DNA from: Caldilineaceae bacterium
Lineage (GTDB): Bacteria; Chloroflexota; Anaerolineae; Caldilineales; Caldilineaceae
Reading direction: 5' to 3'
Assembly (NCBI GenBank): GCA_041391205.1
Contig: JAWKOK010000006.1
Span: forward strand, 50,533 to 114,532
Length of the DNA: 64,000 nucleotides
In this document: piece after piece, positions 6,890-29,075 of the stretch
Position numbering within the stretch: position 1 is the first letter of the stretch
Layout of the letters: each line of letters opens with the position of its first letter
The notes under the pieces: model-generated
The model's input: the letters and a program-made list of their open reading frames with translations, nothing else
The model's database searches: none
Told to the model about the DNA's origin: nothing
Made by a program: the position numbers and the translations under genes

Positions 6890-7651
6890 TCACGGCGCCG
6901 GGTCAAATCGATAGCCGAAGCGCTGAATGTCCCGGGCATAGACGGCCTGTACGATGGCGGCCGTGTGATCACTGTAGGCGGTGCGATAGTCCCGGCGGGC
7001 GCGGTGCGACCTGTTGACATGCTCCAGCGTGGCCGTGCGCTGCAACCGGCGCGCCACGACGTCGAAGTCATCCTGCAGCGTCTCATAGCGGCCGACGAAG
7101 TCGACCAGGAGCGCGCCCGTGGCATCGCACACGAACTCGACCTGCGGCCGGAAATGGACCCATGTCCGCACCCGCGCCGGCGTTACCCAGCGGCGTACGA
7201 AGTCATCGAAATCGGCGAAGTGGGCCAGGTTGTCGGCGTAAAATTGCTGGTCCCAGTGGTCAAAGCCGCCGCGACACAGGAACCGGTACGCAGACAGAAG
7301 CCGGTCCCAGGGGTTGCGCACAAAGGCGAACTTGAAGTAGGCGGCGAATTCCGCCTCATCGAAGACCAGGCGATATTTCCAGATTTCGGTGTGGCCGCCG
7401 CCGCGGTTGCCGAACAAACTGGCTGCGACCGACTGGGACGCGCACTTGGGGATGCGCACGAAGATACACGCGTTGGCGTCGTAGCCGCGCAGCGATTTGC
7501 CGTGATGGGTTGTGCGCCGGCGCAGCGCACGCAGGTTGCCCACGAACTCCGGCCGGTAGCGGGTGACATAGCGGCGCGCCATGGCGGGCGGCATGGCGTA
7601 GAGCATGGCTTCCAACGTCCGTTCGCGCGGTTCGCTGCAAGCAACGATCAT
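6890..7651 (-). CDS. Sulfotransferase, family 2 (carbohydrate-sulfotransferase type)
   Basis: Intact 253-aa ORF with FVRIPKCASQS (5'-PSB loop) and FAFVRNPWDRLLSAY (3'-PB), both diagnostic of Sulfotransfer_2. Its ATG overlaps the upstream gene's stop (ATGA). Confidence 0.75.
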   Translation of the reverse strand: MIVACSEPRERTLEAMLYAMPPAMARRYVTRYRPEFVGNLRALRRRTTHHGKSLRGYDANACIFVRIPKCASQSVAASLFGNRGGGHTEIWKYRLVFDEAEFAAYFKFAFVRNPWDRLLSAYRFLCRGGFDHWDQQFYADNLAHFADFDDFVRRWVTPARVRTWVHFRPQVEFVCDATGALLVDFVGRYETLQDDFDVVARRLQRTATLEHVNRSHRARRDYRTAYSDHTAAIVQAVYARDIQRFGYRFDPAP

Positions 7652-8490
7652 GACGGCGACTCCTGGGCATAGCCGAAGTAGCGCAGGGCGTCGCCCGCAA
7701 CCCGGTCGATCTCCGCAGTTTCGTAGGGCAGCAGCCGCGCCGCCTGGATGGCATTGACGTCCGTGGCCAGCGCCTGCGTCACCGTGGTGCGGTCGAACCA
7801 GTACTTGCGGTGCTCGTCGCCGAACTGGGTGGCGTGCTCGCCCCCGGCGCCGATGACTTTCTTGGACTTGATGCGCACCTTGTCCAGCCGGGCGGGCTGC
7901 ACATCCAGGAAGTCAAACAGGCGCGCGGCCGCGGCAAACGGATCGGCCAGCACGTCCTCAAAGCGGATCAGCGTGAAGTGGCGGGCCGTGTGCGCCAGCT
8001 GCTCCATGGCCGTGCCGATGCGCTGGTACGTTCTGGCGACTTCCACTGCGCGCCGGCCGCGCCGGAGATAGCCGTCACAGAGGGCGTGGGCGTCGCGGGC
8101 CAGGGCGACAATGTAGAGGTCGGGATACGCTTGTTGCAGGATCGGGGTGAGGAAGATGTCGTCGTTGACCGACTTGAGGCAGAGCGCCGCGGCGGCCACT
8201 TCATCCGGCGTGTACAACAGCCCTGGGGCACGAAACTTGTCGTCGGGGTGCGTCAATGTGCGCAGCTTGAAGCCACAGAGTTCGCGGTCGATCGCCTGCC
8301 GTGTTTCGTCAAGGGCCAGCAGGTCGGGTCGGTAGCGACAGGTGCGCAGAATCTCGGATTGCTGAAACAGTTCGCCTGTTTCATAGCCCGCGGAGCAGAT
8401 GTCCGGATGCGACGTGATCAGATTCCACACGAGGCTGGTGCCGCCATGCTCGAAACCGCACAAAAGGATCACTTTGGCGTTGCAGACCAC
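7648..8490 (-). CDS. Sulfotransferase (P-loop-like PAPS-binding type)
   Basis: GTG 8490 lies 8 nt after AAGGAGG. N-terminus KVILLCGFEHGGTSLVW is the PAPS 5'-phosphosulfate loop, and ALARDAHALCDGYLRR is the 3'-phosphate motif. The longer ORF-track start at 8625 lacks an RBS. Confidence 0.7.
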   Translation of the reverse strand: MVCNAKVILLCGFEHGGTSLVWNLITSHPDICSAGYETGELFQQSEILRTCRYRPDLLALDETRQAIDRELCGFKLRTLTHPDDKFRAPGLLYTPDEVAAAALCLKSVNDDIFLTPILQQAYPDLYIVALARDAHALCDGYLRRGRRAVEVARTYQRIGTAMEQLAHTARHFTLIRFEDVLADPFAAAARLFDFLDVQPARLDKVRIKSKKVIGAGGEHATQFGDEHRKYWFDRTTVTQALATDVNAIQAARLLPYETAEIDRVAGDALRYFGYAQESPS

Positions 8491-8605
8491 GGCAAATTCC
8501 TCCTTCAAACGACCGCGTCGCGACGTGCACGCAGTGGCACCAAGTCTACGTGCAACCCGGTGATTTGTCCACCGGTGTGCACGGTCTTGCCCAGGTTCGG
8601 AGCAG

Positions 8606-8668
8606 ACTTCCCGGAAGCCCTCCAAACCGCTCTATATCCGGCAGATCGTGTGAGGGCTTCCGGGAAGT
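8606..8668. promoter_or_regulatory. 17-bp perfect inverted repeat in the divergent promoter region of the cluster
   Basis: ACTTCCCGGAAGCCCTC (8606-8622) and GAGGGCTTCCGGGAAGT (8652-8668) are separated by 29 bp. A flanking direct repeat TCCGG(G)CAGATCGT is also present. Confidence 0.35.
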
Positions 8669-8713
8669 CCGGGCAGATCGTTTCTCGCACGATTGTCCCA
8701 CCGGAAAGGGGGG

Positions 8714-9832
8714 ATGCGCATGTCCGCCAAAATTGACGGCCCCTCGCTCTCCCCGGAGATGCTGATTGTGCGCGGCCTCGACTTGAACGCGATCGTGGGG
8801 ACGCACGACTATGTCAGCGCCGTCTATCACCTGCTCACCGGCGAGTTCCCCACGACAGGCGCGGCCGCAATGCTGGATCGATGGCTGTTGGACAATCTGT
8901 GCCGCGCGCACGTGGACGCGCCGCTGCCGGCCCAGGGGCGCGCGGCCGCGGCGTCCGGTGCGACGCCCATCGGCGCGACGGTGGCGGCGCTGGCCGTGGC
9001 CGATGGACGCGGCGACGTCGCCCTGCCCGCGCTGCCGGCCGACCTCGGGCTAGAGCTGTACCGCGACGGTCTCTACTATTTCAGCCTGCTGCCACTCTTC
9101 TGGGCCACGGCAGTCGCGGCCGCATCTGAAGCGACGGCGGACGGCGCGAATGGAGCACCGCCGCCGCTGGACGATGCGCACGACTACCTGGATGCCGTCT
9201 TCATCCTTGCCTGCGGCCGCCACCTGGAAACCGATGCCGCGCGCACGGTCTTTGACGCGGTCATGACTGCGTTCCATGCCGGCTTCGGCGGCCTGACGCC
9301 CACCACCATGGCCCTGCGCACCGCGGCATCGGTGCGCGCCGGTGCCCATGGCGCTGGCCGCCGGCTACACGGCCGCGGGGCCGCTGCACGTGAGGCGAGG
9401 CCAGGCCGCCATGACCCTGTTCCAGCGCATGGTGCAACAGGCCGGCGGCGATCTGGACTCCGTTGTCCACGCCACGCTGGCGCGCCTGGATGAAGCCGGC
9501 CGGCGTGCCCGGGTTTGGCCACCCCCTTCAAGCGCGACCCGCGGGTGGCGCACTTGCGGGCAATCATCCGGTCCAGCGGCTTGACGTCGCCCTATCTCAC
9601 CGTCTTCGACACGCTGGCCGCCACGCTGGAGGATCGCCACGGCATCTATCCCAACATCGACAGCATGGCCGCGGCCGCGTTCTTGACGCTCGGGATTGCG
9701 CCCGCGTTCGGCACCGGTCTGTTTCTGAGTTCGCGCGCCGCAGCCATGGTCGTCCACATCCAGGACGCGCTGGAAGAGCAGCCATTCGGCGGCCGCAGCG
9801 AGACACTGCGCGCGTGGCTGCAACAACCGTAA
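8714..9832 (+). CDS. Citrate-synthase / citryl-CoA-lyase family protein (frame-disrupted)
   Basis: ATG follows GGAAAGGGGGG. The protein reads across three frames. The PGFGHP-FKRDPRV motif (citrate synthase catalytic His region) is split by an extra C in the C5 run at 9522-9526. The C-terminal part is YPNIDSMAAAAFLTLG... Confidence 0.6.
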
Positions 9833-9943
9833 ACATGCGCCGGCGTCAGCGACACCGGCCGCACAAGGACTGCAATGCGCTTGCGGCGCGGCCGTGGCCC
9901 AGCCCGGTGACGGCGCCATTTCACACGAGGAGATCATTCGATC

Positions 9944-10624
9944 ATGCCGAGCAAACCGAACCTGCCGGTCCAGTACAGCGCAGAATTGTACGACCAATAC
10001 ACGGCGCGACAGATCCGCAATTATGACGACCTGATGGCGCACTCGCTGCTGTCCGCCTACCGTGAGCACGGCGGCGACGCGCTGACGCTGGACATCGGCA
10101 CGGGCACGGGGCAACTGCTGATCTATCTGGCACAAGCGCCGGAGTTCGACCGCATGCGTTTTGAAGGGCTGGATCTCTTCGACGATATGGTGGCCCAAGC
10201 GCGCCAGAACGTCCACGCCCACGCGCTGGACGCGCGCATCCGCATCGTGCAGGGCGACGTGCACCGGCTGCCCCAGCCCGACGACTACGCCGATTTCATC
10301 GTCAGCCGCTCCACCATCCACCACTGGGCCGAACCGGTGCAGGCCTTCCGCGAGATGGTGCGCGTCCTCAAACCCTTCGGCATCATGATCATCCACGACC
10401 TCCGCCGCGACCCGCCGCCCGACATCCTGGCCGAGTTCAACCGCCGGCGCGCCGAAATCGGGGTGCCGCCTACCAACTTGGCGGAGAAGTACACGGTCGC
10501 CGAAATCTGGGATCTATTGGAGCAGGCCGACATCGCTGACCTCTGCACGGTGGGCACAACGGAAGACGGCATCGCCGCCATCGGTTTTGAGATTCGCATG
10601 CGCAAGGTCACGGAGTGGGCGTAA
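9944..10624 (+). CDS. Class I SAM-dependent methyltransferase
   Basis: Intact 226 aa with LDIGTGTGQL (motif I), DFIVSRSTIHHW and LKPFGIMIIHD. Confidence 0.8.
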   Translation: MPSKPNLPVQYSAELYDQYTARQIRNYDDLMAHSLLSAYREHGGDALTLDIGTGTGQLLIYLAQAPEFDRMRFEGLDLFDDMVAQARQNVHAHALDARIRIVQGDVHRLPQPDDYADFIVSRSTIHHWAEPVQAFREMVRVLKPFGIMIIHDLRRDPPPDILAEFNRRRAEIGVPPTNLAEKYTVAEIWDLLEQADIADLCTVGTTEDGIAAIGFEIRMRKVTEWA

Positions 10625-13600
10625 TGCCGGGAGCCGAACTGTTCGCCCTCGGCGCCGTCGCCGGCCGCTGGCCGCGGCGCTGGACGCGAGCCGCCGGCAC
10701 CGGGCGCAGGCCGCGCGATCGCTGCGCGCCTGGGCCGCAGAGTACGCACTGGCCACGCCATGCGACCCGGCTGGCCGTGGTGGCGGACGACGTCGACGCC
10801 CTGTCGCGCCGCTGGACCGCCTGCGACGCCTCTGCGTGACACCGCCGTTTCCAAGGAACGGATTGCGCCGTCGGTCTTCTACGCGACGGCCCTGCCGGGC
10901 AAACCGTCCTCCTGTTCCCGGGCATCGGCTCGGCGTACGACGGGATGATGGACGGGCCACCCAGGCCTTTCCGGGCGTCGAGCAGTGGTTCCGGGACATG
11001 GACGCGCCGTTCGCCGTCATGGAGCCGCACGCAGCTGTATCCGCCGACGCGCCAAATCTTCTGCCGCAAAACGGCCTGCCCAACTTCATCGGCACCATGG
11101 CCATGTTCGGTCTCATGGAACGCGCGGTGAAGTACCATGCGCTGGCCGGACACAGCAATGGCGAAAACGTTGGTGGCGTCGGGCAAAATGGCGTTCCGTA
11201 GCTCGCGGATGATCTCATGCACATCCTCAGCGACGTGCTCCACGCCAGCGTCCAGAACCACGCCGGCGAATACGTCGCGGGCGTGACGCTTGCGGTCAGC
11301 GGCGTGCCCGTCGACCGGCTGGAAGTGCTCTGCGCCCAATCCGGGGGCAAGATGGTCGTGGCCATGGTGAACTGTCCCACCCAGGTGGTCATGTTCGTCA
11401 CCGACGGCTATGCCGCCCAGGCGCGCGCACTCGTCGCCGGCGCCGGCGGCCTGCACGTGCAGCTTCCGCTCCAGGAGCCGCTCCACACGCCCTTCTTCCG
11501 GCCCGCCATGCCGCGCCTGAGCCAGATCTACGACGCCATCCGCTTCGAGCCGGGCCTCCATCCGGTCTACAGTTGCAACACGGCGCAACTCTTTCCCGCG
11601 GAGCCTGCCGCCATCCGCAGCCTCGCGCTCAGCCAGTGGATCAACCAGGTGCGCTTCCAGGCCATGTTGGAACAGCTCTATGCCGACGGCTTCCGCACCT
11701 TCGTCGAGGTCGGTCCCGGCAGCGTGCTCACCGGTTTTGTGACCGACACGCTGCGCGGGCGCGGCGACTTCCGCGCGCTGGCGACGGACAACCCACGGCG
11801 GCCCGGTCTGCGCCATTTTCCTCGAGACCCTGGGCTGCCTCTTTGTGCACGGCCAGGATCTGGACCTGGCGCATCTGTACAGTGACCCAGCCGAACACGC
11901 CCCGGCCACCGTCACAGGACGCGATGACGTACCGGCCCCGCCGCCTGCCACCCCGTTGCTCTCTTGTATTTCGGTGCCGCTGCGGGACAGGCTACGTGAG
12001 CGCGCCGTCTTCGCCGGCCGTAAACGGTCATGCGGCTGTGCCGGCGGCCGCCAGGTCTGCTGGTGGCGGCCGTCCGTCGCCGCACCCTGACCCGCGCACA
12101 GCAGAGCCTGCTCGAGTCCCACTTTGCGCTCATGCAGGAATTCCTGGGCAGCCAGGAGCGCACATTGACGGCCCTGCGCCACGCTGACAACGCCCGCGCC
12201 GGTGCACATCGATCACGTGCCGACCCGGCCCACGCGAGTGCAGATCGCATTGCCGCTGCTCGGCGCGACGCCTGCGACCGACGGCATGTCCACGACGCTG
12301 GACGTCACCGTGGACGTGGCGCGCCACGTGATGTTGCTGGACCACGCGCTGGCCAACCAGAACGAGCTGACGCCGCCGGGCATGTCGCCGCTGCCGCTGG
12401 TGCCCTTCGCCGTCAGCATGGAGTACATGGCCGAAGTCGCCGCCACGCTGCGACCGGGCTGGTTCGTCCGCCGGCTGGAGAAGCTGCGCAGCTATCGCTG
12501 GCTGGCCCTGGACGCCGGGACGCTGCCTCCGGGTGCTTTCAGGCGCGCAGTGCACGGCGCAGACGCCCGCCGGCGCCACCATCGCGGTGCAGGTGTTCAC
12601 GCTTGCGGGCGACGAACCCGTGCTGGCCGTGGAGGGCGTCGTGCAGATGGAGGCCACGCCGCCGGTGACACGCAACCGGTGTACACACTGCAAGCGCAGT
12701 GTCGTGGAGCCATGCCGGTCCCCCCCTTTGCCGAATTCTATGCACGCTATCTCTTCCACGGTACTTCCCGTTTCCGCTTTCATCCGCTGCGCACGTCGTG
12801 GCCGACGACGGCATCGAAGTCGCTTGAGTGGCCATCGATCCGCAGCAGCGGTACCAGGCCGACGCGGCCCTGCGCCGTCACCTGCTACCGCTGGTCTTTT
12901 TGGACTGTCTGGGCCAGTCGACGGCCTACATTCTCTACGAACGCACAAGCACTTTGCGCTCTTCCCCTCCAGATCGAATCCTTCGAGCAATTTTCGCCCC
13001 AGTTGGCGCGGGCGCAGCAGATTCGGGCGCGCAGCCATGCCGGTTTCAAGGAGGCGATTTGTCACCCACCACGCTGGAATTTCTGGACGACCAGGGACAC
13101 GTGCTCGGGCGTTACCAACTTCCGCCAGCGCTACTTCGACGACCCGCAGGTGGCCCAATTCATTGCGCCTCAGACGCCTGAGTTCTTCCATTCGGCCGAG
13201 TTGACGCGGGTGCACCGGCGGTCACTGCGTGGCATCACCACGGGCTTCAGCAGCGAACTCTTCAGCACCAGTGACGGCATCTGGCTGCGGGCGCTGCGGG
13301 CTGTGGTGCTGGCGCCTGCCGACTCCGCCACGTGGCATCGCGCCGCCTATCGCGCGGCCGCACGCATGCACTGGCTGCTGGGTCGCGTGGCCGCCAAAGA
13401 CGCGGTGCGCCGCTGGGCGCAGGCGACCCACGGGCTGGCGCTCATGCCGTGGGACATTGCGATCACCAACGCGGCGTCGGGTCAGCCGTCGTATGTCCCG
13501 CTGGCGCAGTTGAGTCCGCTGCCCGATCTGGCCATCTCCCAGCCACGACCGCGCTGCATGCGTATTCTGTCCTGCCGGGCCGGGTGGGCATCGACCTGGA

Positions 13601-13990
13601 GTTTGCCCCGGGCCGCGACGAAGCGGTGCTGGCGTCCATCTTGAGCGACGACGAGCGCCTCGTTGCAGCAGGCAGGCGGCGTCACGCTGGCCGGGCTGCT
13701 CTTTTGCTGGTGCAAAGGAAGCGGCGGCCAAAGCGTCGGGTCACGCCAAGGGGGTGGTGCCGTACGCGCAAGGGGCTTCGTCACCTACGCGCCGCCGACC
13801 GCGGCCGCGCCGCGGCCACGCCACCGTTGCCCACGACGGCGCACTTCGCGGTCACGCTTTGGCGCGAGGGAGACGCCCAGCCTGCCCTCTGCCACTTGCC
13901 CGAGTTCGACCCAGGCGTTGCCGTCATCACTTGGCCCAGCCCGTCACATCACCCGCACCACCCGCACGTTGATTCACGCGCCACGTTGCT
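10624..13990 (+). CDS. Multidomain acyltransferase - PKS-type dehydratase - 4'-phosphopantetheinyl transferase protein, heavily frame-disrupted (at least 10 switches); 3' end approximate
   Basis: The ATG overlaps the methyltransferase stop (TAATG). Domain evidence: AT has LLFPGIGSAYDGM..., ALAGHSNGE, ...FVEVGPGSVLTGF. DH has LLDHAL...PLVPFAVSMEYMAEVA and LFHG...LLPLVFLDCLGQ. PPTase has RVGIDLEF and the GAKEAAAKA motif near 13600-13730. Confidence 0.6.
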
Positions 13991-14038: not shown

Positions 14039-14338
14039 ATGGCGACCAAAGACGAAATCTCCCAGGTTGTGCTCACCACATTGGCGGAGAAACTGGACGA
14101 ATGGACGATTGACCACGACGAGTTGACGCTGCAAACCCTGCTCATCAACGAACTGGGCCTCTCGTCCATCGACGTGGTGCACGTGCTCATGAGCATCAAC
14201 ATGCAGCTCAACGAGCGGCTACAGTACGGCAACTTCATGGTGACGGAGCAGCACAAGGACGACGTCCCGGTCGAGGCGATTGTGGACTACATCGTGACGA
14301 GCCTCAACGAGGGCGAAGACGCGTTCTTGGCGGTCTGA
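14039..14338 (+). CDS. Discrete acyl carrier protein
   Basis: AGGAGG lies upstream of ATG 14039. The 99-aa acidic protein has the INELGLSSIDVVHVL phosphopantetheine-attachment context. Confidence 0.7.
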   Translation: MATKDEISQVVLTTLAEKLDEWTIDHDELTLQTLLINELGLSSIDVVHVLMSINMQLNERLQYGNFMVTEQHKDDVPVEAIVDYIVTSLNEGEDAFLAV

Positions 14339-14359
14339 CCGGCGCGGAGCCGGCTTCAC

Positions 14360-15122
14360 ATGGTGCAACTCTACTTTTCGGCCGACGACTTCGGCCTCAC
14401 AGACGGCGTCGCGCGCGGGATCGTGAGCAGCATCCGCGACGGCGTGGTGGCGACCACCAGTGCCATGGTCTGCGTGCCGGACGCCGCGACCCACTTGCAG
14501 CGCTGGTCCGCGGCGTTGCCGGGTCGCATCGGCGGGCACCTGCAACTCACCGGGGGCCGTCCCTGTCTGCCGCCGGCGCGCGTGCCGTCGCTGGTGGACG
14601 CGTCCGGCGCATTTCTGCCGTCACGCGCTCGCGACCGCGGCCGCACCCGCGCCGAGGAAGTCTACGCCGAGTGGAACGCCCGTTTCGCCTGGCGGAGTGC
14701 GGGATCGCGGTGACGCACCTGGACAGCCATCATCACGTCCACCGCCTGCCCGGCATCTTCGACGTCTACTGCGCCATCGCCCGGGAGCGGAGCCTGCCCG
14801 TGCGCACCCACGACCGGCGCATGACCCAGGCGCTGCGCCGCCGCAACATCCGCTGCGCCGACCAATGTCTGACCGAAGCTCTACGGGGCCAAGGCCACGG
14901 CCGAGGAGCTGCACCGCGCCGTGCGCGCCGCGACCCTGCGCAGCGGGCCGGACGCCGTGCTCGAAGTCATGTGTCACCCTCGGCGAGGTCGACGACGCGC
15001 TGCCGACCTTGAGCAAGTACACGGACGGACGTGCCCAGGAGTTGGCGCTGCTCTGTGCGCCCGAGTTCCGGGCAGAGCTCAAGAGTTGGGGCGTGGAGTT
15101 GCTCGACACACCCCACGGTTGA
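14360..15122 (+). CDS. YdjC/ChbG-family carbohydrate deacetylase (frame-disrupted)
   Basis: N-terminus LYFSADDFGLTDGV..., then THLDSHHHVHRLP in a second frame, and VLEVMCHPGEVDD...ELALLCAPEF at the C-terminus. All are YdjC signatures. Confidence 0.65.
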
Positions 15123-15166: not shown

Positions 15167-15947
15167 ATGTCTGCGCCACTCATCCGCAACACGCTGTTCG
15201 ACACGACGCCGCTGGTCGTCCACGCCCACGGGTATCACACGTTCAAGCCGTTAAAAATGGAGCCGATTTCAAGGCGGCCTTCTTCGCCACGCCGCCCCGA
15301 CAGATCGGGCCTCCACGCCGGACCTGACCGTCATCACGTGGAACAACGGCGCCGCGGGCATGGGCATCCTGGAGCGAAGTCTCACGCACCTGGGCGTGCC
15401 GGTGACGGTGCTGGGGCAGGACGTTCCGGTCTGGAACAACGCCGTCCACAAGCCCCAGGTCACGGCCGCTGCGCCAAGCCGCGGATCACGACCGAGTTCG
15501 TGCTGGGCATCGACTCGCGTGATGCGCTGTTGCTGGGCGATCCCGCCGAGTTGGTGGCCCGTTTTGTGGACGAGTACGACTGCCGGCTGCTGTTTGCCGC
15601 GGACCTGGTCAACTGGCCCACGTTGGCCCGCTTCGACGCCTTCGAGTCCTCGTTGCCGCCGGCCCAGGGCAACCGCTTCCGCTACTTCAACGGCGGCATG
15701 TGGATCGGGCGCACGGCGTACTGCCGGCGCTTCTTTGCCGAGGCGACACGCGTGCCGCCCTGCCCGGAACAGCCCGATTCGGAGCAGGGGCATTCTCAAG
15801 CAGATGTTCCCGGGATCACTTCCCGGACGTCTACCTGACTACCGGTGCAGCCTGTTCCAGAACATCGGGTTCGTCTTCAACCCCATTCTTGAAGTGAACG
15901 GCGGCCCCGTGGCGTTGGAACGGCTGCTCAAAGTCAAGTCGACCTGA
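15167..15947 (+). CDS. Putative GT-A-like nucleotide-sugar transferase (frame-disrupted)
   Basis: GAAAGGAGGA precedes ATG 15167. The pieces ...VLGIDSRDALLLGDP...LLFAADLVNWP...RYFNGGMWIGR... resemble PLOD/GT-A-type glycosyltransferase cores. The assignment is tentative. Confidence 0.4.
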
Positions 15948-18046: not shown

Positions 18047-18096
18047 GCGAGCCACACCCGAGCCGCGGATCTATTTTTCACGAGCGAGATAAGCCC

Positions 18097-21000: not shown

Positions 21001-24000
21001 GGCTGGCCGACGCGCAGCGGGACGGCGACCGCATCTACGCCGTGGTCAAGGGCGTGGGCAAATCCAGTGACGGCAAGGGGCTGGCTTGACCGCGTTTCAG
21101 CCCATCGGCCAGTTGCGCGCCTTCACCCGGGCCTACGCGGAGACCGGCTTCGCCGCGCACGCTCGGTCTCTACGAGGCCCACGGCACCGGCACGGTCGTG
21201 GGCGATCGGGCCGAACTGGAGACGATCACGACCACGCTGCACAATGCGGGGGCCTCGCCGCAAACGTGCGCCATCGGCTCGGTCAAGAGCCTGATCGGGC
21301 ACACCAAGAACGCGGCCGGCGTCGCGGGCCTGATCAAGGTCGTCATGGCGCTCTACCACCGCACGTTGCCGCCCCACGCCAACATCGGCGCGCCGCTGGA
21401 CGGCGTCACCGAGGAGGAGAGCCCGGTCTACATGCTCAAGGAGGCGCGGCCGTGGCTGGCCCACCCCGCGCATCCGCGGCGGGCGGCGGTCAGCGCCTTC
21501 GGCTTCGGCGGGGTCAACGCGCATGTGGTGCTGGAGGAGTACGGCGCGTCGCAAGACCGCGCGCCCGCCCGCCCGCGCGGCGAAGACGGCGCGGCCGATT
21601 GGCCCTGTGAACTCTGCCTCTTCTACGGCGCCGACGTCGCCGACTTGACCCGGCAAGTCGACCGGCTGCTGGCCGATCTGGCCGCGGGCGCGACCCCGCG
21701 CCTGGCAGATCTGGCGTACTCACTGGCCCACGCGGCCGTGAACGCGCCGTCGTCCGCAGCGCGGCTGGCCGTCGTCGCCCGGGATCTGGCCGATTTGACC
21801 CAGAGCCTGACCACCGCCCGCGCCCATCTCCAGAACCCCGCGACCCCGTTGCCCGAGACAATTGCGGTGGCGCGGGATGTTCCGGCCGGTGAGCGCACGG
21901 TGGCGTTCCTCTTCCCCGGGCAGGGCGCGCAGACGCCCAACATGGCGCGGGAGGCGGCCCTGTACATCGGCGAGGTGCGTGCGGCGGTCGAGGACGCCGA
22001 CGCCGTGCTCCAGGCGCGCTACCCGCGGCTGCTGAGCTCGTACATCTATCCGCCCGGCGCGTACACACCCGGCGCGGCCATCCGCCAGCAGACGCAGTTG
22101 ACCAACACCCACGTGGCCCAGCCGGCCATCGGCGCGATCTCGGCCGGCCTGCTCGGGCTGCTGCACCGCCTGGGCATCCGGCCGCAGATGGCCGCGGGCC
22201 ACAGCTTCGGCGAACTGACCGCACTCTTTGCCGCCGGCGCGCTCGCCTACCCGGACTTCATCGCGCTGGCCGAGCGCCGGGGCCACGCCATGGCCCAGTG
22301 CACCGTGGAAGGCGGCATGGCCGCGGTCCACGCGCCCCGGGACGAGGTGGAACGTCTGCTGGCGGAACTGCCCCAGGTGGTCTTTGCCGGGCACAACGCG
22401 CCCAACCAGTGCACCATCACCGGCGAGATCAGCGAACTGCGCGCCGCGGGCGAGCGCCTGCAGGCCGCCCACATCCGCATGGACATGTTGCCCGTGTCGG
22501 GGCCGTTCCACTCGCCGCTCATGCTGCCGGCGCTGGATCCGCTGACCGCGGCCATTCGGGCCACGACGTGGCAGGCGCTGCGCGTGCCGGTCTACTCCAA
22601 CGTGGGCGGCGCGGTCTATGCCGGCGGCGCGGCGGCGACGCGCGCCCATCTGGAGGGCCACCTGCTTCAACCCGTGGACTTTGTGGGGCAGGTGGAAAAG
22701 ATGGTGGCCGATGGGGCGGACCTCTTCGTCGAAGTCGGTCCGCGTACCATCCTCAGCGATCTGACCCGTCGCATCGTCGCCGACCCGGCCATTCCAGTGC
22801 TGGCGCTGGACGGGCTGGGCGGCGGGATGCGCGGTCTGCTCGCGGCGCTGGCCAAGCTGGTCTGCAGCGGCGTCCCCTGCGCGCCGGTGCAACTCTTCGC
22901 CGCGCGCGCCGTCACGCGCGTCGACCTGGACAACCTGGCCGCGACCACCGCGCCGCTGCCGCACTCGCCCACGACCATGCTGACCAACGGCGCGACCATC
23001 CGGCGGCCGGATGACGTCCCGAGCCAGCCGCTGCCGGTGACGTCCCTGCGCGAGTTCGTCAAGGGACGCGCGGCCGGCGACGGCCCGGTCGCTCCGGCGG
23101 ATGGCGCCGATGATTATGTCAACAAGAGTGCGCACTCCACGGCGGCGGTGACGACTGCTTCGTCACCGGTCGCACCGATCACGCCGTCGCAGCCAATGTC
23201 GCCGTCACAGCCACCGGCACAACCGGCGCACACGCCCGCGGCCACACCGTTGATCGCGGCCTTTGAAGCGCACCAGGCGACCATGCGCCAGTTCCTCCAA
23301 ACCCAGGAGGCCATCATGCGCGAGTTCCTGGGATCGAGTCCGCTGCCGGCGGCCGCTTCCCCGCCGCCGGTTGCGTCCACGGCCGCCGCGTCCAATGGAG
23401 CCGAGCCCGGTTTCGCGCCGCAAAGTCCACCGGTGACGGAAGCCGCTGCCATGTCGCCCCCGGCGGCAACGCCCGCGGCTGCCAACGCGGCTGCACCCGT
23501 CGCGCCGCCCGCACCGGCAGACGCCACACCGGCCGCGTCCGCCTTGGCCGGCGGCGACCGGCAAGCGTTGACCGAGACGCTGCGCGCCATCGTGGTCGAC
23601 CGCACGGGCTATCCCCCGGAGATGATCGGCGACACGCTGGACCTGGAGGCGGAACTGGGCGTCGACTCCATCAAGCGCATCGAGATTCTGGAGACGCTCA
23701 AGGGGCTGCTGCCCCAGGCGCTGGTGGCCGTCATGCAGGAGCACTTCGAGGCGCTGGTCGGGGCGAACTCGCTGGCCCAGATCGTGGATGCGCTGGTCGC
23801 AAAGGGCGCAGGCGTCGCAGACGGTGCAGAAGCGGTAGATGCGGCTGTGCCCGCGAAGGTCGCGCCGGACGCTGGTCGCGCCGCGCGGACCCACGCGCCA
23901 CGGCCGCCCGGCGCCTTCGTTGCCGGTGACGTCATCCACCGGCTCCGCAGAAAACGACCGGGCCGACCAGAACGCGCCGGGCAACGGCGCACCCACGAAC

Positions 24001-25695
24001 GGCACACACGCGGTAGACGTGCGCGAGGCCGACCCGTCCACCGACGGCGCGCTGCCGGCTTGCCCGCGCTACGTCGTGCGCAGCCGCATGCAGGGTCTAC
24101 CGCGCAGCCGGGGCGCCACGCTCACCGGTCTCTATCTCATCACCGAGGATGCCATGGGCGTCGCGCCCCACGTGGCCGAGGAACTGCGCCGGCGCGGTGC
24201 GGCGGCGACCGTCATCGGGCGCGGGCAGTTGGTCTCCTTCGAAGCGGTGGAGACGGCGGTGCTCCAAGTGCGGCGGCAGAGCGGTCCCGTGCGCGGCATC
24301 GTGCACCTCGCCCCGTTGACCACGCACCCCATGCCGGATACCCTGGACGCCTGGAAGCAGACCACCCAGCAGGAGTGCAAGAGCCTCTTCCAACTGCTCC
24401 GCCTCTGCGCACCGGACCTGGCCACACCTGCGGACGAAGGCCGGCAAGCGGTGGTGGCGGCCTCGTTCATGGGGGGGTATTTCGGCCGGGACGGCGCGGT
24501 GGAGCCGGGGCTGCCGTCCGGGGGCAGCAGCGTGGGCCTGCTGAAATCCCTGCGCACGGAATGGCCCCATCTCCACGTGCGCGCCGTGGACTTGGACGGC
24601 TATGTGGACGCACACGAGAGCGCGGCGCTCATCGTCGCCGAGCTGCTGGCCGACGACAGCACTGTGGAGGTGGGTTACCCCATGGGCATGCGCGCCGTGC
24701 CGGAGATCGTGGCGGCGCCGCTGCCGGAGCAACTCGTCGGTCGCCACTACCCCGCGCCTGCGTCGGATTGGGTGGCGTTGGTGACGGGCGGGGCGCGCGG
24801 CATCACGGCCGCGATTGCGCGCCGGCTGGTGCTGCCCGGCATGACGGTCCACGTAGTGGGGCGCACGCCGCTCGCCGCGCCCGAGGCTGACGAACTGGCC
24901 GCGTTACACGACGTGCAGGCGCTGCGCGATCACTTCATTGCGCAAGCGCGCGCGGCCGGCACATCCGCCACGCCGGCTGCGCTGGAAGAGCAGGTGCGCG
25001 CCGTCCTGCGCGGGCGGGAGATGCGGGCCAACTTGGCGCAGTTGGAGGCCCAGGGTGCGCGGGTGGAATACCACGCCGTGGACGTGCGCGACGAAGCGGC
25101 CATGCAGACGTTGCTGCGCGGCATCTACGCGCGCTTCGGGCGGCTGGACGTGGTGGTCCACGGCGCCGGTGTCATTGCCGACCGCCTGCTGGCCGACAAA
25201 GATCCCGCGGCGTTCGACCGTGTGTTCGACACCAAGGTGGACAGCATCTACCTGTTGAGCCGCTTCCTGCAGCCGGAGACGCTCAAGCATGTGATGCTCT
25301 TCGGCTCGGTGGCGGGGCGTCACGGCAACGTGGGGCAGACCGACTACGCCGCGGCCAACGAGGTGCTGAACCGTTTCGGCTGGTGGCTGCGGGGCCGGTG
25401 GCCGTCGGTCCACGTGACGACCGTCAACTGGGGGCCGTGGGCCGGCATCGGCATGGCGGACGCGGCGATCATGGACGCGTTGCGGGCGCGCGGCATCATG
25501 CCCGTGGCGCCGGAGGCCGGCATCCGCTTCTTCATGGACGAACTGGTGCACGGCGACGGGACAAGCGAGGTGATCGCGGGCGACGGTCCGTGGCACGCCG
25601 ACGCCACTCCGCCCGCGGCCCACAGCATCGACCTGCACGCGCTCTTCCACGAGATCGATCTGGCGGTGGAACAGATTTGGCGCAGCGACGCGTGA
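18097..25695 (+). CDS. Single-module type I polyketide / secondary-lipid synthase: NMO-like, PfaD-type enoyl reductase, KS, AT, ACP, KR
   Basis: Domain evidence: ER has YPIIQGPMTRVSD...FEGRECGGHIGP...VFAGGIHD. KS has DVAIIGISLIMPGA, VDAACA-SSL (Cys codon 20781-20783), EAHGTGT, GHTKNAAG. AT has FLFPGQGAQ, GHSFGE, GPFHSPLM. ACP has LGVDSIKRIEIL. KR has VTGGARGIT...GSVAGRHGNVGQTDYAAAN. The gene is intact over 18097-20720 and 21200-23880. There are about 6 frame switches in 20720-21200 and one near 23900. Confidence 0.85.
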
Positions 25696-25733
25696 CCGGG
25701 GGCGGCGCGCAGGGCGCGGACGGGAGGCGTGCC

Positions 25734-26576
25734 ATGGCAGAGCAGGCGGCTACGATCGAGCAACAGCTACGCCGCAATGCCGCGTTGTATTTTCCCCACG
25801 CGCTGGGGAAGGTGGCGCCCAAGCACGTGGCCAAAGAGGCGTCAGCCTATGCCCGCGCGGCGGTCGCTCGTGGCACGCCGCTGCGCGCCAAATTCGTCAT
25901 CATGACGCGCGGGCGTGCGGGCAGTGGTCTGCTGGTCGATCTGCTCAACAGTCACCCGCAGATTCGCTGCCAGACCGAGCTGCTCCACGACCGCATGTTG
26001 TTTCCGCGGCGCTACCTGCGCGCCAACGAACGGCTGGCCAGATTGCCGGTCTTCGGCTTCAAGCTGCTCTCCTACCAGATGATCGGCGTGCAGAAACTCG
26101 CCAGCCCGGCCGGGTTCCTGCACGAGCTTGCCGGCGACGGTTACTCCGTGATCTACCTCTGGCGGCGCAATTTGCTGCGCCAGATTTTGTCGCTGCTCTA
26201 CGCCGCGGAGCGACGCTCGTTCCACAGCCACGCCGGCGACGATGTCGCCCACACCACCATGCGTGTGGACCCGGCGATCGTGCTGAGCTGGCTGGAGTTC
26301 AGCACCCGGTTGGGCGAGTGGGAGCGTAGTGTGCTTGCCGAGCTGCCGTATGTCGATGTGACCTACGAGGACGATCTCAGCCGCAGCGAGGCTCAGCAGG
26401 CGACGGTGGCGCGCATCACCACGCGGCTGGGACTGGAGCCGGCGCCCGTGCAGTCCACGCTCACGCCGAGCACCCCGCGCGCGCTCGACGACTTCGTGGC
26501 CAACGCGGACGAGTTGCGCCGCAGCCTGGCCGGTACACCGTACGCCCAGTATCTGGACGCGCCGCACGCCGGCTGA
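25734..26576 (+). CDS. Stf0-like sulfotransferase
   Basis: GGGAGG precedes ATG 25734. The intact 280-aa protein has FVIMTRGRAGSGLLVDLL (PAPS loop) and VIYLWRRNLLRQILS, comparable to the Stf0 (trehalose 2-sulfotransferase) family layout. Confidence 0.65.
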   Translation: MAEQAATIEQQLRRNAALYFPHALGKVAPKHVAKEASAYARAAVARGTPLRAKFVIMTRGRAGSGLLVDLLNSHPQIRCQTELLHDRMLFPRRYLRANERLARLPVFGFKLLSYQMIGVQKLASPAGFLHELAGDGYSVIYLWRRNLLRQILSLLYAAERRSFHSHAGDDVAHTTMRVDPAIVLSWLEFSTRLGEWERSVLAELPYVDVTYEDDLSRSEAQQATVARITTRLGLEPAPVQSTLTPSTPRALDDFVANADELRRSLAGTPYAQYLDAPHAG

Positions 26577-27764
26577 TTGCGCCTCGTCCCGACGCCGGCC
26601 GACGCGCGCCCGTCCGGCCCACATGAGAGGTTGGCTGATCCATTGACGATTTCCACACACCCCAAGTTGGGCTCGCTCCTCTACCACAGCCACCACACCG
26701 TCGGCGTGGGCCATCTGGTGCGCGCCCTCGCCCTGGTGGCGGCGCTGCAAACACGCTTTGACGTGACGTTTCTCTCCGGCGGCGTCTTCCCCGCGGGCCT
26801 GGCGATTCCGCCGGGCGTCAACTTCGTCCAGTTGCCCGCACTCATGCGCGCGGCGAGCGGGCGGCCCCAGAGCGCAGGCAGCGACCGGCCCTGGACCGAG
26901 ACCATGGAATTGCGGCGCGCGGCGGTGCTGGCTCACTTTGCGCACGTCGCGCCCGCCGTGGTCGTGGTCGAGTCGTTCCCCTTCGGCCACCGGCTGTTGA
27001 TGAGCGAGCTGCTCTCGTTGTTGGACGCCAACCGCCACCGCGCGGGCGGTCCGGCCCGCGTCTACGCCAGCATCCGGGACATCATGGAGCGGGACAAGGA
27101 CGCCCCAGTTGTACGACGACCTGGCCGCCAGCCTGGCCAACCACTACTTCGACGGCATTCTGGTCCACACCGACCCGCGCTTCATCACCCTGGACGCCAC
27201 CTTCCAGCCCAAGGTGCCGCTGGCGTGCCGGTCCACCACACCGGCTTCGTGACGAGGACCGGCCCGTTGACTGCGCCGGAGCGTGACGCGACGCCCGCCA
27301 GGCCGTACCTGCTGGCCTCGGCCGGGGGCGGGCGGGTCGGCGGGCCGCTGCTGCGGGCGGTGCTCGCGGCCTACCTTGCGTCCGACCTGCCACGGCGCGT
27401 GGACCTGGTCGTGGTCACGGGGCCGTTTTTGCCGGAGGAAGAGTGTGCCCGGCTGGAGACGACGGCGGCGCGCTATGCCAATGTCAAAATTCTGCGCTGG
27501 ACCGACGACATGCGCGGCCTGATGCGCCACGCGGCCGGCTCGGTGAGCCAGTGCGGCTACAACACGACCATGGACCTGTTGGCGTCCGGCGTGCCCGCGC
27601 TGGTCGTGCCCTATCACACGCCCCACGACTTTGAGCAGAGCACCCGCGCCGCGATTGGCGGGCGCGGGCTGGTGCGCACGCTCGCGCCCGGCGCGCTGGA
27701 TGAAGCCGCCCTGGGCCGGGAACTGGCTGCGCTGCTGGACTTCAAGCCGGCGCACCGGGCCTGA
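26577..27764 (+). CDS. Glycosyltransferase, GT28/MurG-like C-terminal domain family (start uncertain; contains a compensating frameshift pair)
   Basis: LLYHSHHTVGVGHL is the N-terminal G-rich loop, and SVSQCGYNTTMDLLASGVPALVVP is the Glyco_tran_28_C motif. Region 27103-27224 reads sensibly (QLYDDLAASLANHYFDGILVHTDPRFITLD) only in another frame. Confidence 0.65.
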   Translation: MRLVPTPADARPSGPHERLADPLTISTHPKLGSLLYHSHHTVGVGHLVRALALVAALQTRFDVTFLSGGVFPAGLAIPPGVNFVQLPALMRAASGRPQSAGSDRPWTETMELRRAAVLAHFAHVAPAVVVVESFPFGHRLLMSELLSLLDANRHRAGGPARVYASIRDIMERDKDAPVVRRPGRQPGQPLLRRHSGPHRPALHHPGRHLPAQGAAGVPVHHTGFVTRTGPLTAPERDATPARPYLLASAGGGRVGGPLLRAVLAAYLASDLPRRVDLVVVTGPFLPEEECARLETTAARYANVKILRWTDDMRGLMRHAAGSVSQCGYNTTMDLLASGVPALVVPYHTPHDFEQSTRAAIGGRGLVRTLAPGALDEAALGRELAALLDFKPAHRA

Positions 27765-27880
27765 ACCTGGACGGCGCGGCCACCTGCCGCACAGATCGTG
27801 GCCGCCGCCGTCGCACAAGATGCCGTCGCACGGGGTCCGGTCGCCGACGGCAATGTCGCCCACCCAGGAGGCAGTCGCCC

Positions 27881-29075
27881 ATGAGCGCGGACCCGCAGAC
27901 ACGGCCGCGCTGCGGCTTGATCATCAACACGTTGAAACCCGAGGGCGGCATGGGACTCTCCGTGCGCCGCCACATCCACCTGCTCGCGGACGACGTCGAC
28001 ATCATCCCCATCGCGCTGGAACTGTCGGGCAACGAGCGGGATTGGTGCGGACGGGTGGAGCAGCTGACGCTCGACGGCGTGCGCGCCTACCGCATTCACG
28101 CCGCGGACCTGCGCGTCGACCGGGTGAGCGGCAACACGGACATGCGCCATCGCACCTTTGTGGACGAGTTGGTGCGCATCGCCCAGCGAAAGCTGGACGT
28201 GCTGCACGTCTTCGGCGCATTCGAACTGCGCCCCTTCGTGGCCGCGTTGGCCGCGGTCGAGGCCGACATCCCGCTCATCGTCACGTTTCGCGGCTCGGAC
28301 CTGGACATCCGCATCTTCGGCAGCAACTTCGCCCACATGCAGGCCGCAGTGCGCTGCGCCGCCGCCTGCGTCTGCCTCAACGCCGGCGCGCCGGGTGGTG
28401 GAGCGGGTGCTGCAGCCGCAGGCGACAGTCTACGAAATCCCGAACCACATCGAGCCGGAGCCTGCCGACGGTGCGCCGCCCGCGCCCGTCCGCTTGAGCC
28501 ACGACGGCGCGCCGGTGATCGGGTGCGTGGGCGAGTTTCGCCGGGTCATCGGGCTGGACTGGCTGTTGGCGGCGTTCGCCCGGGTCGCCGCGGAGATGCC
28601 GTGCCGGCTGGCGCTCATCGGCCCCGTCCGCGACACGGAGGCGCTCTACTACACGCCGCTCATCGACCGCCATCCCTTCGTGCAGCGCATTCTGCGCGTG
28701 GGACCGGTGGAGCACGCGCAGATTCCGGCCTATCTCAACGCCTGCGATCTGCTCGTCTTCCCGTCGGTCAGCGACGGCTCGCCCAACAAGGTGCTGGAAG
28801 CCATGCGCGCGGCGCGCCCCATCATCGCAGCGCCGGTGGGCGGCATTCTCGAGATGATTCGGCACGAGCGGGAGGGGCTGCTGGTCGACCCGCGCGCCAC
28901 CGACGACCTGGCCGCGGCCATCACCCGCCTGCTGCGTAACCCCGAGGACGCGCGCGCGTTGGGGCAGGCGGCACGTGAACGCGCCATGACCCACTTCACC
29001 GCCGCGCGCGAGTTGGCGGCGTGGCAAGCATGTTATCGCGCGGTGTTGGGCAAGGGAGAGCCGGCGCGCGGTTGA
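27881..29075 (+). CDS. Glycosyltransferase family 4 (frame-disrupted once, near 28385)
   Basis: AGGAGG precedes ATG 27881. The C-terminal FPSVSDGSPNKVLEAMRAARPIIAAPVGG is the GT4 E-x7-E region. Confidence 0.7.

Follow-up and report, generated by a model that had tools for sequence, protein, structure and literature searches.

A Pfa-like lipid synthase gene cluster with glycan-building, deacetylase and sulfotransferase genes in a Caldilineaceae bacterium, and its predicted sulfated amino-glycolipid product

Introduction

The gene cluster analysed here places glycan-building and sulfotransferase genes beside a lipid synthase, and it recalls several described systems. It lies in a 64,000-nucleotide stretch of DNA (the window; positions 50,533 to 114,532 of the 195-kb contig JAWKOK010000006.1) from a metagenome-assembled genome (MAG) of a Caldilineaceae bacterium (Chloroflexota). 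In the heterocyst glycolipid system (HglE/D/C/A/B, HglT and DevBCA/HgdBC), a chain made by a Pfa-like synthase is then glycosylated to give an envelope glycolipid. Sulfolipid-1 (Stf0, Pks2, PapA1/2, FadD23 and MmpL8) combines an acyl chain derived from a polyketide synthase (PKS) with a sulfated sugar. The Nod-factor system (NodB, NodH and NodS) brings together a deacetylase, a methyltransferase, a sulfotransferase and a special acyl carrier protein (ACP), and the CurM/Ols systems use a sulfotransferase dependent on 3'-phosphoadenosine 5'-phosphosulfate (PAPS) together with a PKS without a conventional release domain. In the HpnI/HpnK, BshA/BshB and MshA/MshB pairs, a glycosyltransferase (GT) and an N-deacetylase act on an N-acetylglucosamine (GlcNAc) conjugate of a lipid or small molecule; HpnK deacetylates lipid-linked GlcNAc in hopanoid side-chain synthesis. 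The superfamily of Pfa-like secondary lipid synthases extends over many phyla. Most of its types have no known product (PMC3098273; PMC13291983); it was sorted into types A-T by Shulse and Allen in 2011, and in their Type J a pfaD enoyl reductase (ER) gene is followed by a pfaA homologue with the domains KS-MAT-ACP3-KR (PMC3098273), where KS is ketosynthase and KR ketoreductase. In the bolagladins, a tricarboxylic fatty-acid tail has been proposed to be made by the citrate synthase BolR together with the O-methyltransferase BolS (PMC7756705).

The cluster in the window resembles each of these systems in part, and it fails defining features of the Hgl, sulfolipid-1, CurM/Ols, Nod-factor and bolagladin pathways. 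An initial annotation of the window had stated that its mix of genes matches no characterised pathway that it could name, and full-text literature searching found none with this combination. The cluster is a real and probably working one of the Caldilineaceae bacterium. With confidence a little above even, we read it from its sequence as a functional Pfa-like synthase cluster whose product would be an anionic, sulfated amino-glycolipid of the cell envelope, and we hold the individual steps much less firmly. The sulfated, glycosylated polyketide-type lipid proposed by the initial annotation remains the most economical prediction.

Results

The core is a Pfa-like lipid synthase

Families were assigned by Pfam scans of each open reading frame (ORF) and of repaired proteins, and the coordinates of plus-strand genes are those after repair of frame breaks, for which we used three sister Caldilineaceae MAGs of the same accession series, L081 (GCA_041391185.1), L082 (GCA_041391045.1) and L083 (GCA_041391165.1). 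Three genes form the core, in which AT is acyltransferase, DH dehydratase and PPTase phosphopantetheinyl transferase:

10633 to 13930, plus strand: AT-DH-PPTase partner protein of about 1,100 aa (Acyl_transf_1, PS-DH, ACPS); end uncertain
14039 to 14338, plus strand: free-standing ACP, 99 aa, intact (PP-binding, E 1.6e-3)
18097 to 25695, plus strand: Pfa-like megasynthase (NMO-like)-ER-KS-AT-ACP-KR of about 2,530 aa; breaks in the window near 20731, at 21087-21165 and at 23.1-24.0 kb

The repaired megasynthase matched NMO, ketoacyl-synt, Ketoacyl-synt_C, Acyl_transf_1, one PP-binding and KR in Pfam. A PfaD-type ER makes up its N-terminal part (PF03060 NMO, 66-75 bits), and a PfaA-like KS-AT-ACP-KR is present as well (KS full length with 213 + 121 bits, AT with 114 bits and KR with 124 bits), carrying the motifs DAACASSL, EAHGTGT, GHSFGE, YAAAN and LGVDSIK and the ACP motif of polyunsaturated fatty acid (PUFA) synthases, LGVDSIKRIEIL. 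The ORF at 17992-20844 is 100% identical to the NCBI protein MEZ4714979.1. The repaired partner keeps the motifs GHSNGE, GIDLE and W..KEA..K, the last two in the ACPS domain of a dedicated PPTase at its C-terminus, and the free ACP has the serine motif GLSSID. By domain content, megasynthase, partner and free ACP together hold every activity of a fully reducing iterative cycle. On this evidence we assign the core to the Pfa-like secondary lipid synthase superfamily, as a PfaD-PfaA-type fusion with an AT-DH-PPTase partner, and from its family it would be an iterative synthase of a long, mostly saturated chain. The initial annotation had called it a one-module PKS; the domains ER-KS-AT-ACP-KR are as it described, and the label is better replaced by a PfaD-PfaA-type Pfa-like synthase with a partner.

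Type J is the closest of the Pfa types by description, and the best matches of the window protein have identities of 43-52%. The core shares with the Pfa-like synthases the PfaD-type ER with KS-AT-ACP-KR, the PUFA-type ACP motif, the dedicated PPTase and a second AT/DH protein. It differs from them in that the PfaA-like protein carries the ER as an N-terminal fusion, a single ACP is present, the partner of this lineage lacks KS and chain length factor (CLF), the DH is of the PKS type (PS-DH) and not of the FabA type, and the PPTase is fused to the partner. The repaired PKS has a single PP-binding stretch and no tandem ACP repeats, against 4-5 repeats in relatives such as L047. A PfaC-like KS-CLF with FabA-type DH is absent, the partner consisting of AT, PS-DH and ACPS only; the stretch from the methyltransferase gene to the AT is too short for a KS, and the N-terminal KS of relatives is missing from the window partner. 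With one ACP, no partner KS/CLF and no FabA-type DH, the core is not a canonical PUFA synthase. The tailoring set around it (five glycan genes, a deacetylase, three sulfotransferases and a citrate-synthase-like enzyme) is unreported for any Pfa-like type in the literature searched.

Tailoring genes and layout of the cluster

The other genes of the cluster, with the three sulfotransferases named ST-a, ST-b and ST-c and SAM standing for S-adenosylmethionine, are as follows:

6890 to 7651, minus strand: ST-a, Sulfotransfer_2 sulfotransferase, 253 aa, intact (PF03567)
7648 to 8625, minus strand: ST-b, Sulfotransfer_3 (P-loop) sulfotransferase (PF13469); 4-nt overlap with ST-a
8714 to 9832, plus strand: citrate-synthase/citryl-CoA-lyase-like enzyme of about 372 aa (Citrate_synt); local double frame break at about 9.34-9.52 kb
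9944 to 10624, plus strand: class I SAM methyltransferase, 226 aa, intact (Methyltransf_11/25/31)
14360 to 15122, plus strand: YdjC-family carbohydrate N-deacetylase (Pfam YdjC); frame-broken in the window
15167 to 15947, plus strand: GT_PLOD-like GT-A-fold glycosyltransferase (PF25342, E 1.4e-9)
15961 to 16853, plus strand: GINT1_N-family protein (PF24793); frame-broken in the window
16854 to 18046, plus strand: GT4 glycosyltransferase (a); frame-broken in the window, exact start uncertain
25734 to 26576, plus strand: ST-c, by predicted fold a Stf0-like carbohydrate sulfotransferase of about 280 aa, intact
26577 to 27764, plus strand: GT28/MGT-like GT-B glycosyltransferase, 395 aa, intact (Glyco_tran_28_C, E 1e-6)
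27881 to 29075, plus strand: GT4 glycosyltransferase (b) of about 397 aa; one frame break in the window near 28.3 kb

Every gene type that the initial annotation had listed at 6890-29075 was found by family matches, in the order and at the coordinates that it gave, and its layout, a divergent sulfotransferase pair beside a co-directional, tightly packed plus-strand string at 8714-29075, was likewise correct. The ATG of ST-c, preceded by GGGAGG, follows 38 nt after the PKS stop codon, and the ST-c stop codon abuts the start of the GT28-like gene, so that ST-c stands between PKS and GT28 inside the operon-like string. The order is interleaved, with glycan genes placed after the partner and ACP genes and before the PKS. 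As the initial annotation had noted, no thioesterase (TE) or PAPS-synthesis gene was found among the annotated ORFs across the window, although small or frame-broken ORFs may have escaped. Rfam and tRNA scans of the window gave no match.

The G+C content is about 65% in the window overall and 67-72% over the cluster. In a profile over 8-30 kb the cluster exceeds its flanks by 2-7%, a hint of horizontal acquisition, and another such hint is an ISKra4/ISH6-like transposase remnant (6227-6877, plus strand), which lies at the left edge of the cluster and adjoins ST-a and ST-b.

Distribution and co-conservation

The synthase type was found in at least 80 species of about ten phyla, as single polypeptides of 2,000-3,100 aa with 43-52% identity. 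Its homologues occur in cyanobacteria (non-heterocystous Microcystis and Synechococcus included), Nevskiaceae, Planctomycetota, Acidobacteriota, Verrucomicrobiota and other Chloroflexota. In nearly every case the PKS has a KS-(CLF)-AT-DH partner, and homologous partner genes adjoin the PKS in up to 71 of 80 loci. Only PKS and partner recur across the 80 loci; accessory genes are kept in one of them, L031, a Pyrinomonadaceae (Acidobacteriota) MAG (contig DASVPO010000024.1). The L031 set consists of an ABC transporter, a methyltransferase, a DUF3303-like protein, a KS-AT-DH-PPTase, an ER-KS-AT-ACP-KR and a TauD protein, and further of an isopropylmalate synthase (IPMS)/homocitrate-synthase-like enzyme, the orthologous methyltransferase, a GT4 and a GT_PLOD GT-A. 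Its partner, at 1,574 aa, has a KS, unlike the window partner. Identities between window and L031 are 49% for the methyltransferase, 36% for the GT-A and 33-44% for GT4 (a). Two further genes of the window have counterparts there:

35378 to 36342, minus strand: TauD-family Fe(II)/2-oxoglutarate dioxygenase (Pfam TauD), frame-broken; 35-41% identity with the L031 TauD (17562-18551, directly after the PKS)
36524 to 36814, minus strand: DUF3303-like small protein, 96 aa, with a weak PF11746 match; 48-51% identity with the L031 ORF at 4855-5163, directly upstream of the partner gene

The genes common to the window and L031 show that the cluster family spans two phyla, and the cluster in the window probably reaches to about 36.8 kb, past the coordinates of the initial annotation. 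Co-conservation, which that annotation had named as a check on its proposal, is partial across the 80 species: L031 keeps the methyltransferase, GT4, GT-A, TauD and the small protein, and no sulfotransferase, YdjC, GINT1_N, GT28 or citrate-synthase-like gene accompanies the PKS. The sulfotransferase, YdjC, GINT1_N and GT28 genes are specific to this lineage. Metagenome scans with the small protein and the methyltransferase as markers yielded no further cluster members.

A citrate-synthase-like enzyme is paired with a methyltransferase

After repair, Citrate_synt covers positions 21-348 of 357 in the citrate-synthase-like enzyme. The best NCBIfam matches were citryl-CoA lyase subfamilies (108 bits, below cutoff), and the best PDB match was the citryl-CoA lyase 6hxp (E 1e-11), with the PGFGH and NID motifs kept and the position of the first catalytic His ambiguous in the alignment. 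The gene has the sequence GGAAAGGGGGG, which resembles a ribosome-binding site (RBS), before its ATG. Directly downstream lies the SAM methyltransferase gene, whose best NCBIfam matches, BioC and UbiE, are weak and whose O-methylating role is putative. In L031, an isopropylmalate/homocitrate-synthase-like enzyme (18561-20552), which has the catalytic domain without the LeuA regulatory domain, directly precedes the orthologous methyltransferase gene. On these matches, the pairing of a Claisen-type 2-oxoacid-condensing enzyme with a following methyltransferase is conserved between window and L031, the condensing enzymes themselves being non-homologous, and the L031 enzyme may fill the same role as the citrate-synthase-like enzyme of the window.

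The bolagladin and gladiochelin pathways likewise have a citrate-synthase-family enzyme adjoining a SAM methyltransferase within a fatty-acyl pathway (PMC7756705), and the BolR/BolS pairing provides a rationale for both the window pair and the L031 pair. Two things set the window apart: its enzyme is nearer to citryl-CoA lyase than to BolR-type citrate synthases, and the cluster has no KS III, acyl-CoA ligase or nonribosomal peptide synthetase, the role of the citrate-synthase-like enzyme being an inferred one.

Glycan genes and the YdjC deacetylase

The repaired YdjC protein covers positions 2-265 of 266 in the Pfam profile with 189 bits. In NCBIfam it matched chitin disaccharide deacetylase with 177 bits and HpnK with 100 bits, both below cutoff, and the activity of HpnK gives a direct precedent for a YdjC enzyme that acts on a glycolipid. 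In L081, YdjC and GT_PLOD are annotated as a joint 527-aa ORF. YdjC may either be fused to the GT-A or have a gene of its own, and the stop codon of the GT-A gene is kept in all copies covering that stretch. For the gene that the initial annotation had described as a GH43-like propeller, the gene call stands and the identity changes: it belongs to the GINT1_N family (PF24793 positions 42-303 of 304, 170 bits after repair), and a PDB sequence search returned nothing convincing for its fold.

GT4 (a) has Glyco_transf_4/Glyco_trans_4_4 and Glycos_transf_1 domains, and only generic GT4 matches in NCBIfam, with BshA among the top four and far below cutoff. The repaired GT4 (b) matched Glyco_trans_1_4 (107 bits), Glycos_transf_1 and Glyco_trans_4_4. 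A BshA-like specificity was considered for the GT4 enzymes and dropped, as nothing beyond generic GT4 similarity was found. The GT28-like GT-B had weak NCBIfam matches to MJ1255/VC2487, PseG and MGT. The cluster resembles the HpnI/HpnK, BshA/BshB and MshA/MshB pairs in its combination of glycosyltransferase and N-deacetylase genes, with all window scores below the family cutoffs. The deacetylase, methyltransferase, sulfotransferases and special ACP recall the Nod-factor system, but the cluster has no GT2 NodC-like protein, NodB polysaccharide-deacetylase domain or NodA domain.

Further glycan genes lie outside the string. A NAD-dependent sugar epimerase/dehydratase is spread over three frames at about 37420-38341 (plus strand) and has a homologue near the PKS of the Anaerolineae MAG L055; it might supply the cluster with a nucleotide sugar. 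More glycosyltransferases (GT4, GT2 and GT2) are encoded at 45905-49352 (minus strand), about 17 kb downstream of the cluster.

Three sulfotransferases

ST-a matched PF03567 with 61 bits (E 2e-16), which assigns it to the carbohydrate-type Sulfotransfer_2 family, and it has more than 2,000 relatives at 40-55% identity. ST-b matched PF13469 with 38.6 bits (E 2e-9); its longest ORF is 325 aa where the sister MAGs annotate 280 aa, and its PDB sequence match, to heparan sulfate (HS) 3-O-sulfotransferases, is marginal only.

ST-c gave a weak Sulfotransfer_3 P-loop match and no sequence-level match to Stf0/PF09037, a domain that two of its distant homologues carry. The AlphaFold2 model of ST-c (pLDDT 84.5) had as its best PDB fold match 1TEX, Stf0 with trehalose (E 1.3e-5, TM 0.52/0.58, 15% identity), followed by HS 3-O-sulfotransferases. 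The Stf0-like character that the initial annotation gave this third sulfotransferase is undetectable by sequence and is suggested by its predicted fold. Similarity to a NodH-type enzyme was marginal (E 0.11). The ST-c family is large, with 13,686 representatives in an exhaustive profile search; a count of eight relatives, which would have made it a very rare family, was an artefact of a word-index prefilter.

With sulfolipid-1 the cluster has in common the combination of a PKS-derived acyl chain with a sulfated sugar, as predicted here, and the predicted fold of ST-c is nearest to Stf0. In contrast, ST-c and Stf0 show no detectable similarity in sequence, the PKSs belong to different classes (the Pks2 NCBIfam model, with a cutoff of 2,400 bits, reached 30 bits with the partner AT), and no PapA acyltransferase, FadD ligase or MmpL transporter is among the annotated cluster proteins. 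A CurM/Ols-like role of a sulfotransferase, another precedent named in the initial annotation, is disfavoured: the Ols sulfotransferase domain is only the 16th fold match of ST-c and there is no ST-TE didomain. The PKS ends with its KR, the window sulfotransferases are free-standing with no TE after any of them, and ST-c is encoded by its own ORF with its own RBS.

The right flank encodes an NHLP exporter

Directly downstream of the cluster, and convergent with it, lies a complete three-component export system, which stands between genes of the cluster family:

29099 to 35241, minus strand: NHLP bacteriocin export system (ABC2, a 272-aa gene, ABC1 with C39 peptidase, HlyD)

ABC2 matched TIGR03797 with 813 bits (cutoff 709), ABC1 with its C39 peptidase TIGR03796 with 940 bits (cutoff 853) and HlyD TIGR03794 with 202 bits (cutoff 156); the 272-aa gene, at 31061-31879, is unassigned. 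These three genes are an NHLP peptide exporter, and they are probably a separate unit and not a glycolipid exporter. We identified no gene for an NHLP precursor peptide, although small ORFs were not searched systematically. The DUF3303-like small protein was considered as a precursor and set aside, since it does not resemble one.

These equivalog-level matches remove the analogy to the ABC/MFP exporter of heterocyst glycolipids on which the initial annotation had drawn, as the adjacent exporter is NHLP and not DevBCA/HgdBC. The cluster and the Hgl system are alike in their Pfa-like chemistry, and the best homologues of the window PKS include cyanobacterial proteins, but these occur in the non-heterocystous Microcystis and Synechococcus too. 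No cluster protein has an HglB-type thioester reductase or NAD_binding_4 domain, and sulfation and N-deacetylation are absent from the Hgl system.

Farther along the window, a 1,054-aa HTH-AAA(STAND-like)-TPR regulator (41367-44531, plus strand) overlaps two long ORFs without family match (40037-41659, minus strand, and 44285-45877, plus strand). A COX2-cytochrome c fusion is followed by an unusually long ORF of 1,079 aa at 54569-57808 (plus strand), with COX1 at residues 226-669, possibly a fused oxidase subunit.

Frame breaks are assembly noise

The frame disruptions flagged by the initial annotation are real features of the sequence record. The plus-strand genes of the window contain roughly 50 of them (upper bound 59), with YdjC, GT4 and the KS domain each split across frames, and all four MAG copies are broken. 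Taken at face value, they would describe a dead cluster of decaying pseudogenes. L081, L082 and L083 carry the same cluster in the same gene order, each with its own set of breaks: 46 of the 59 window breaks lie at sites unbroken in L081, 46 of 59 likewise in comparison with L082, and an in-frame version of every break exists in some other copy. The window breaks at 20731, 21087-21165 and 23.87-24.03 kb are sites of window-unique 1-2-nt indels, and every KS break coincides with such an indel. The annotated L081 protein continues through the 20731 break with the active site intact (VDAACASSLTAL, DAACASSL included), and L083 has an intact 1,802-aa KS-to-KR ORF that overlaps the window's own intact ER-KS ORF. 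GINT1_N is intact in L082 (332 aa) and L083 (301 aa), and ST-b is intact, indel-free and almost invariant in the three aligned copies (window, L081 and L082).

The alignment alternates between two states. Indel-free blocks of 1-2 kb with 0-1% differences (7.5-8.5, 18-20, 25-26.5 and 29-30.3 kb, parts of the flanks included) are separated by noisy patches with dense 1-2-nt indels and 5-20% mismatches. The outlier copy varies by block, being the window at 16-17 kb, L081 at 21-25 kb and L083 at 26-29.5 kb, and the two others agree near-perfectly. Since 1,000 nt that are identical, synonymous sites included, lie beside 15% divergence, in-place decay over a single divergence time is impossible. Outlier-specific substitutions were spread evenly over codon positions (87/72/88, p = 0.38; 33/34/42, p = 0.51), whereas the differences in the clean ER-KS block lean to third positions (12/5/23, p = 0.002), which points to purifying selection on real differences. 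This contrast tells noise apart from real, selectively constrained divergence.

We repaired the genes by a codon-aware Viterbi path that may switch between copies and is penalised for frameshifts. The mosaic path needed 0 frameshifts, left 0 breaks unresolved and gave the PKS as one 2,542-aa ORF with six copy switches. The score of YdjC rose to 189 bits from 87 + 39 in the window fragments, that of GINT1_N to 170 from 46 bits, and that of the KS to 213 + 121 from 89 + 63 bits. The path can skip true stop codons: it joined GINT1_N with GT4, and the partner with the ACP; both junctions were corrected by inspection, and stop codons stand between partner and ACP genes in all copies covering that junction. 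At the same junction (window position about 13980), L082 has an 82-nt insertion relative to the other copies. A plain majority consensus of three and then four copies repaired the breaks only partly, owing to ties and to overlap between noisy patches.

Frame breaks extend to genes outside the cluster, among them a second YdjC gene, an MlrC peptidase, TauD, the sugar epimerase, an AI-2E transporter and a luciferase-like gene. The second YdjC-family gene (2822-3427, plus strand) is truncated at profile position 154 of 266, and the MlrC/M81 peptidase (3714-5216, minus strand) is in two ORFs. The indels showed no concentration in homopolymers and do not fit a simple homopolymer error model. The partner gene is the noisiest part of each of the three copies covering that stretch, and its repair took 25 copy switches. 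L081 and L082 are near-identical in some blocks where the window differs from both (15.5-17.5 and 21.7-22.0 kb). A replacement of the tailoring cassette between strains, which the 47-59% protein identity of ST-c, GT28 and GT4 (b) between window and L083 could have suggested, was rejected, as the DNA is 97% identical in one high-scoring segment pair; the low protein identities arise from dense indels in L083. From the comparison of copies, the mosaic path and the codon positions, we attribute the window frame breaks to patchy small-indel assembly errors and not to gene decay, and low-coverage long-read consensus is their presumed cause.

Discussion

In the pathway that we favour, the synthase would iteratively build a long reduced chain on its ACP, with the PPTase domain activating the ACPs. 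The citrate-synthase-like enzyme would make or attach a tricarboxylate, the chain being primed with it or condensed to it, and the methyltransferase would mask a carboxylate, for which BolR/BolS and BioC are precedents. Release may proceed by acyl transfer, through the PfaB-like AT of the partner or by N-acylation of a deacetylated amino sugar; this route seems likeliest because no thioesterase or reductase is present. The GT-A, the two GT4 enzymes, the GT28-like GT-B and the GINT1_N protein would build a short GlcNAc-containing glycan, in which YdjC would turn GlcNAc into glucosamine (GlcN) as HpnK does on hopanoid-GlcNAc, and the three PAPS-dependent, carbohydrate-type sulfotransferases would sulfate the glycan with PAPS made elsewhere in the genome. 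A single pathway is suggested by the tight, co-directional spacing of the genes, by the glycan genes interleaved with the core, by ST-c between PKS and GT28, and by L031, a member of a different phylum that keeps the PKS pair with the methyltransferase, GT4, GT-A, TauD and small protein. Sulfation of sugar is suggested by the carbohydrate-type family of ST-a and by the predicted fold of ST-c, which matches Stf0 with trehalose and the HS 3-O-sulfotransferases, and the step from GlcNAc to GlcN by the nearness of YdjC to chitin-disaccharide deacetylase and HpnK.

Several points weigh against this pathway. It is an orphan cluster of an uncultured organism, with a product predicted from genes alone. 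We found neither PAPS genes nor an acceptor-specific acyltransferase, thioester reductase or thioesterase, which leaves chain release and the linkage of lipid to sugar to guesswork. The specificities of the GTs are all generic, with NCBIfam scores far below cutoff, and with other glycan genes at 37-49 kb, some of the GTs and sulfotransferases could serve another glycoconjugate. In the 80 other species, none of the three sulfotransferases, YdjC, GINT1_N, GT28, the citrate-synthase-like gene and the free ACP was found near this PKS type, and sampled relatives of ST-a and ST-c stand in unrelated, PKS-free contexts. With no co-conservation, and with sulfotransferases elsewhere in unrelated contexts, the link between sulfotransferases and lipid rests on operon position in one population. 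The intactness of the partner gene is the least certain, the details of its repair are unreliable, and there may be real damage there. L081 and L082 share 23 break positions, which means that the copies are partly dependent (shared reads or co-assembly) or that some consensus errors are systematic.

The alternative that survives best, which we nevertheless regard as unlikely, is a composite neighbourhood, in which the Pfa-like synthase, with the citrate-synthase-like enzyme, methyltransferase, partner and ACP, makes a free or membrane lipid, while the glycan and sulfotransferase genes decorate another acceptor, possibly a sulfated exopolysaccharide, sheath or S-layer glycan. It would account for the missing co-conservation of the sulfotransferases and most glycan genes with the PKS and for the PKS-free contexts of ST-a and ST-c homologues, and the epimerase at 37.4-38.3 kb with the GT4, GT2 and GT2 genes at 45.9-49.4 kb shows that other glycan genes are near; the transposase remnant beside ST-a and ST-b suggests that this pair was acquired separately. 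It fits poorly with the single co-directional string (partner, ACP, YdjC, GT-A, GINT1_N, GT4, PKS, ST-c, GT28, GT4) in which glycan and PKS genes are interleaved, and with the retention of GT4 and GT-A beside the PKS pair in another phylum in L031. Moreover, we found the cluster to contain neither Wzx/Wzy nor a priming phosphoglycosyltransferase nor a polysaccharide export gene.

A second alternative, to which we give very little weight, is that the lipid synthase works with the adjacent NHLP system and that ABC1, ABC2 and HlyD export a ribosomal peptide product carrying lipid and/or sugar. The completeness and convergent position of this exporter agree with such a role; the exporter is also embedded, since the TauD and DUF3303-like genes common with L031 lie beyond it on the same strand, and L083 keeps the same arrangement. 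It is opposed by the lack of an identified precursor, subject to the limit on small ORFs given above, by a small conserved protein unlike one, and by L031, which is without the NHLP exporter and whose ABC gene has no more than a generic match of about 30%; nor did we find a peptide-acylating enzyme of the GNAT or condensation-domain kind. A dead cluster is hardly credible: the number of breaks, their presence in every copy, the noise of the partner gene in all copies covering it and the positions common to L081 and L082 speak for it, but the sites unbroken elsewhere, the clean blocks beside divergent ones, the broken genes beyond the cluster and the purifying selection on real differences oppose it, and the gene decay that the initial annotation had named as fatal to its proposal does not apply.

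A more specific form of the sulfated amino-glycolipid is a bolaamphiphilic envelope lipid with a tricarboxylate end (citrate-derived and methyl-masked in synthesis), a long Pfa-like chain and a multiply sulfated glucosamine oligosaccharide end, released by acyl transfer to the sugar. We offer it as speculation that is doubtful as it stands. If true, it would be a previously undescribed lipid class from Chloroflexota and the first secondary lipid to carry sulfate, and it would give the widespread ER-fused Pfa-like synthase family its first assigned product.

The frame breaks hold a lesson of their own: apparent pseudogenisation in long-contig MAGs can be assembly noise, which is diagnosable from sister MAGs without reads. 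As to the cluster itself, its tailoring set (glycosylation, N-deacetylation, triple sulfation and a Claisen enzyme with a methyltransferase) is interpretable and leads to testable predictions on the product of a synthase of this family and on release without a thioesterase. If the sulfated amino-glycolipid reading is right, a sulfated glycolipid would be added to the poorly known envelope chemistry of filamentous Chloroflexota.

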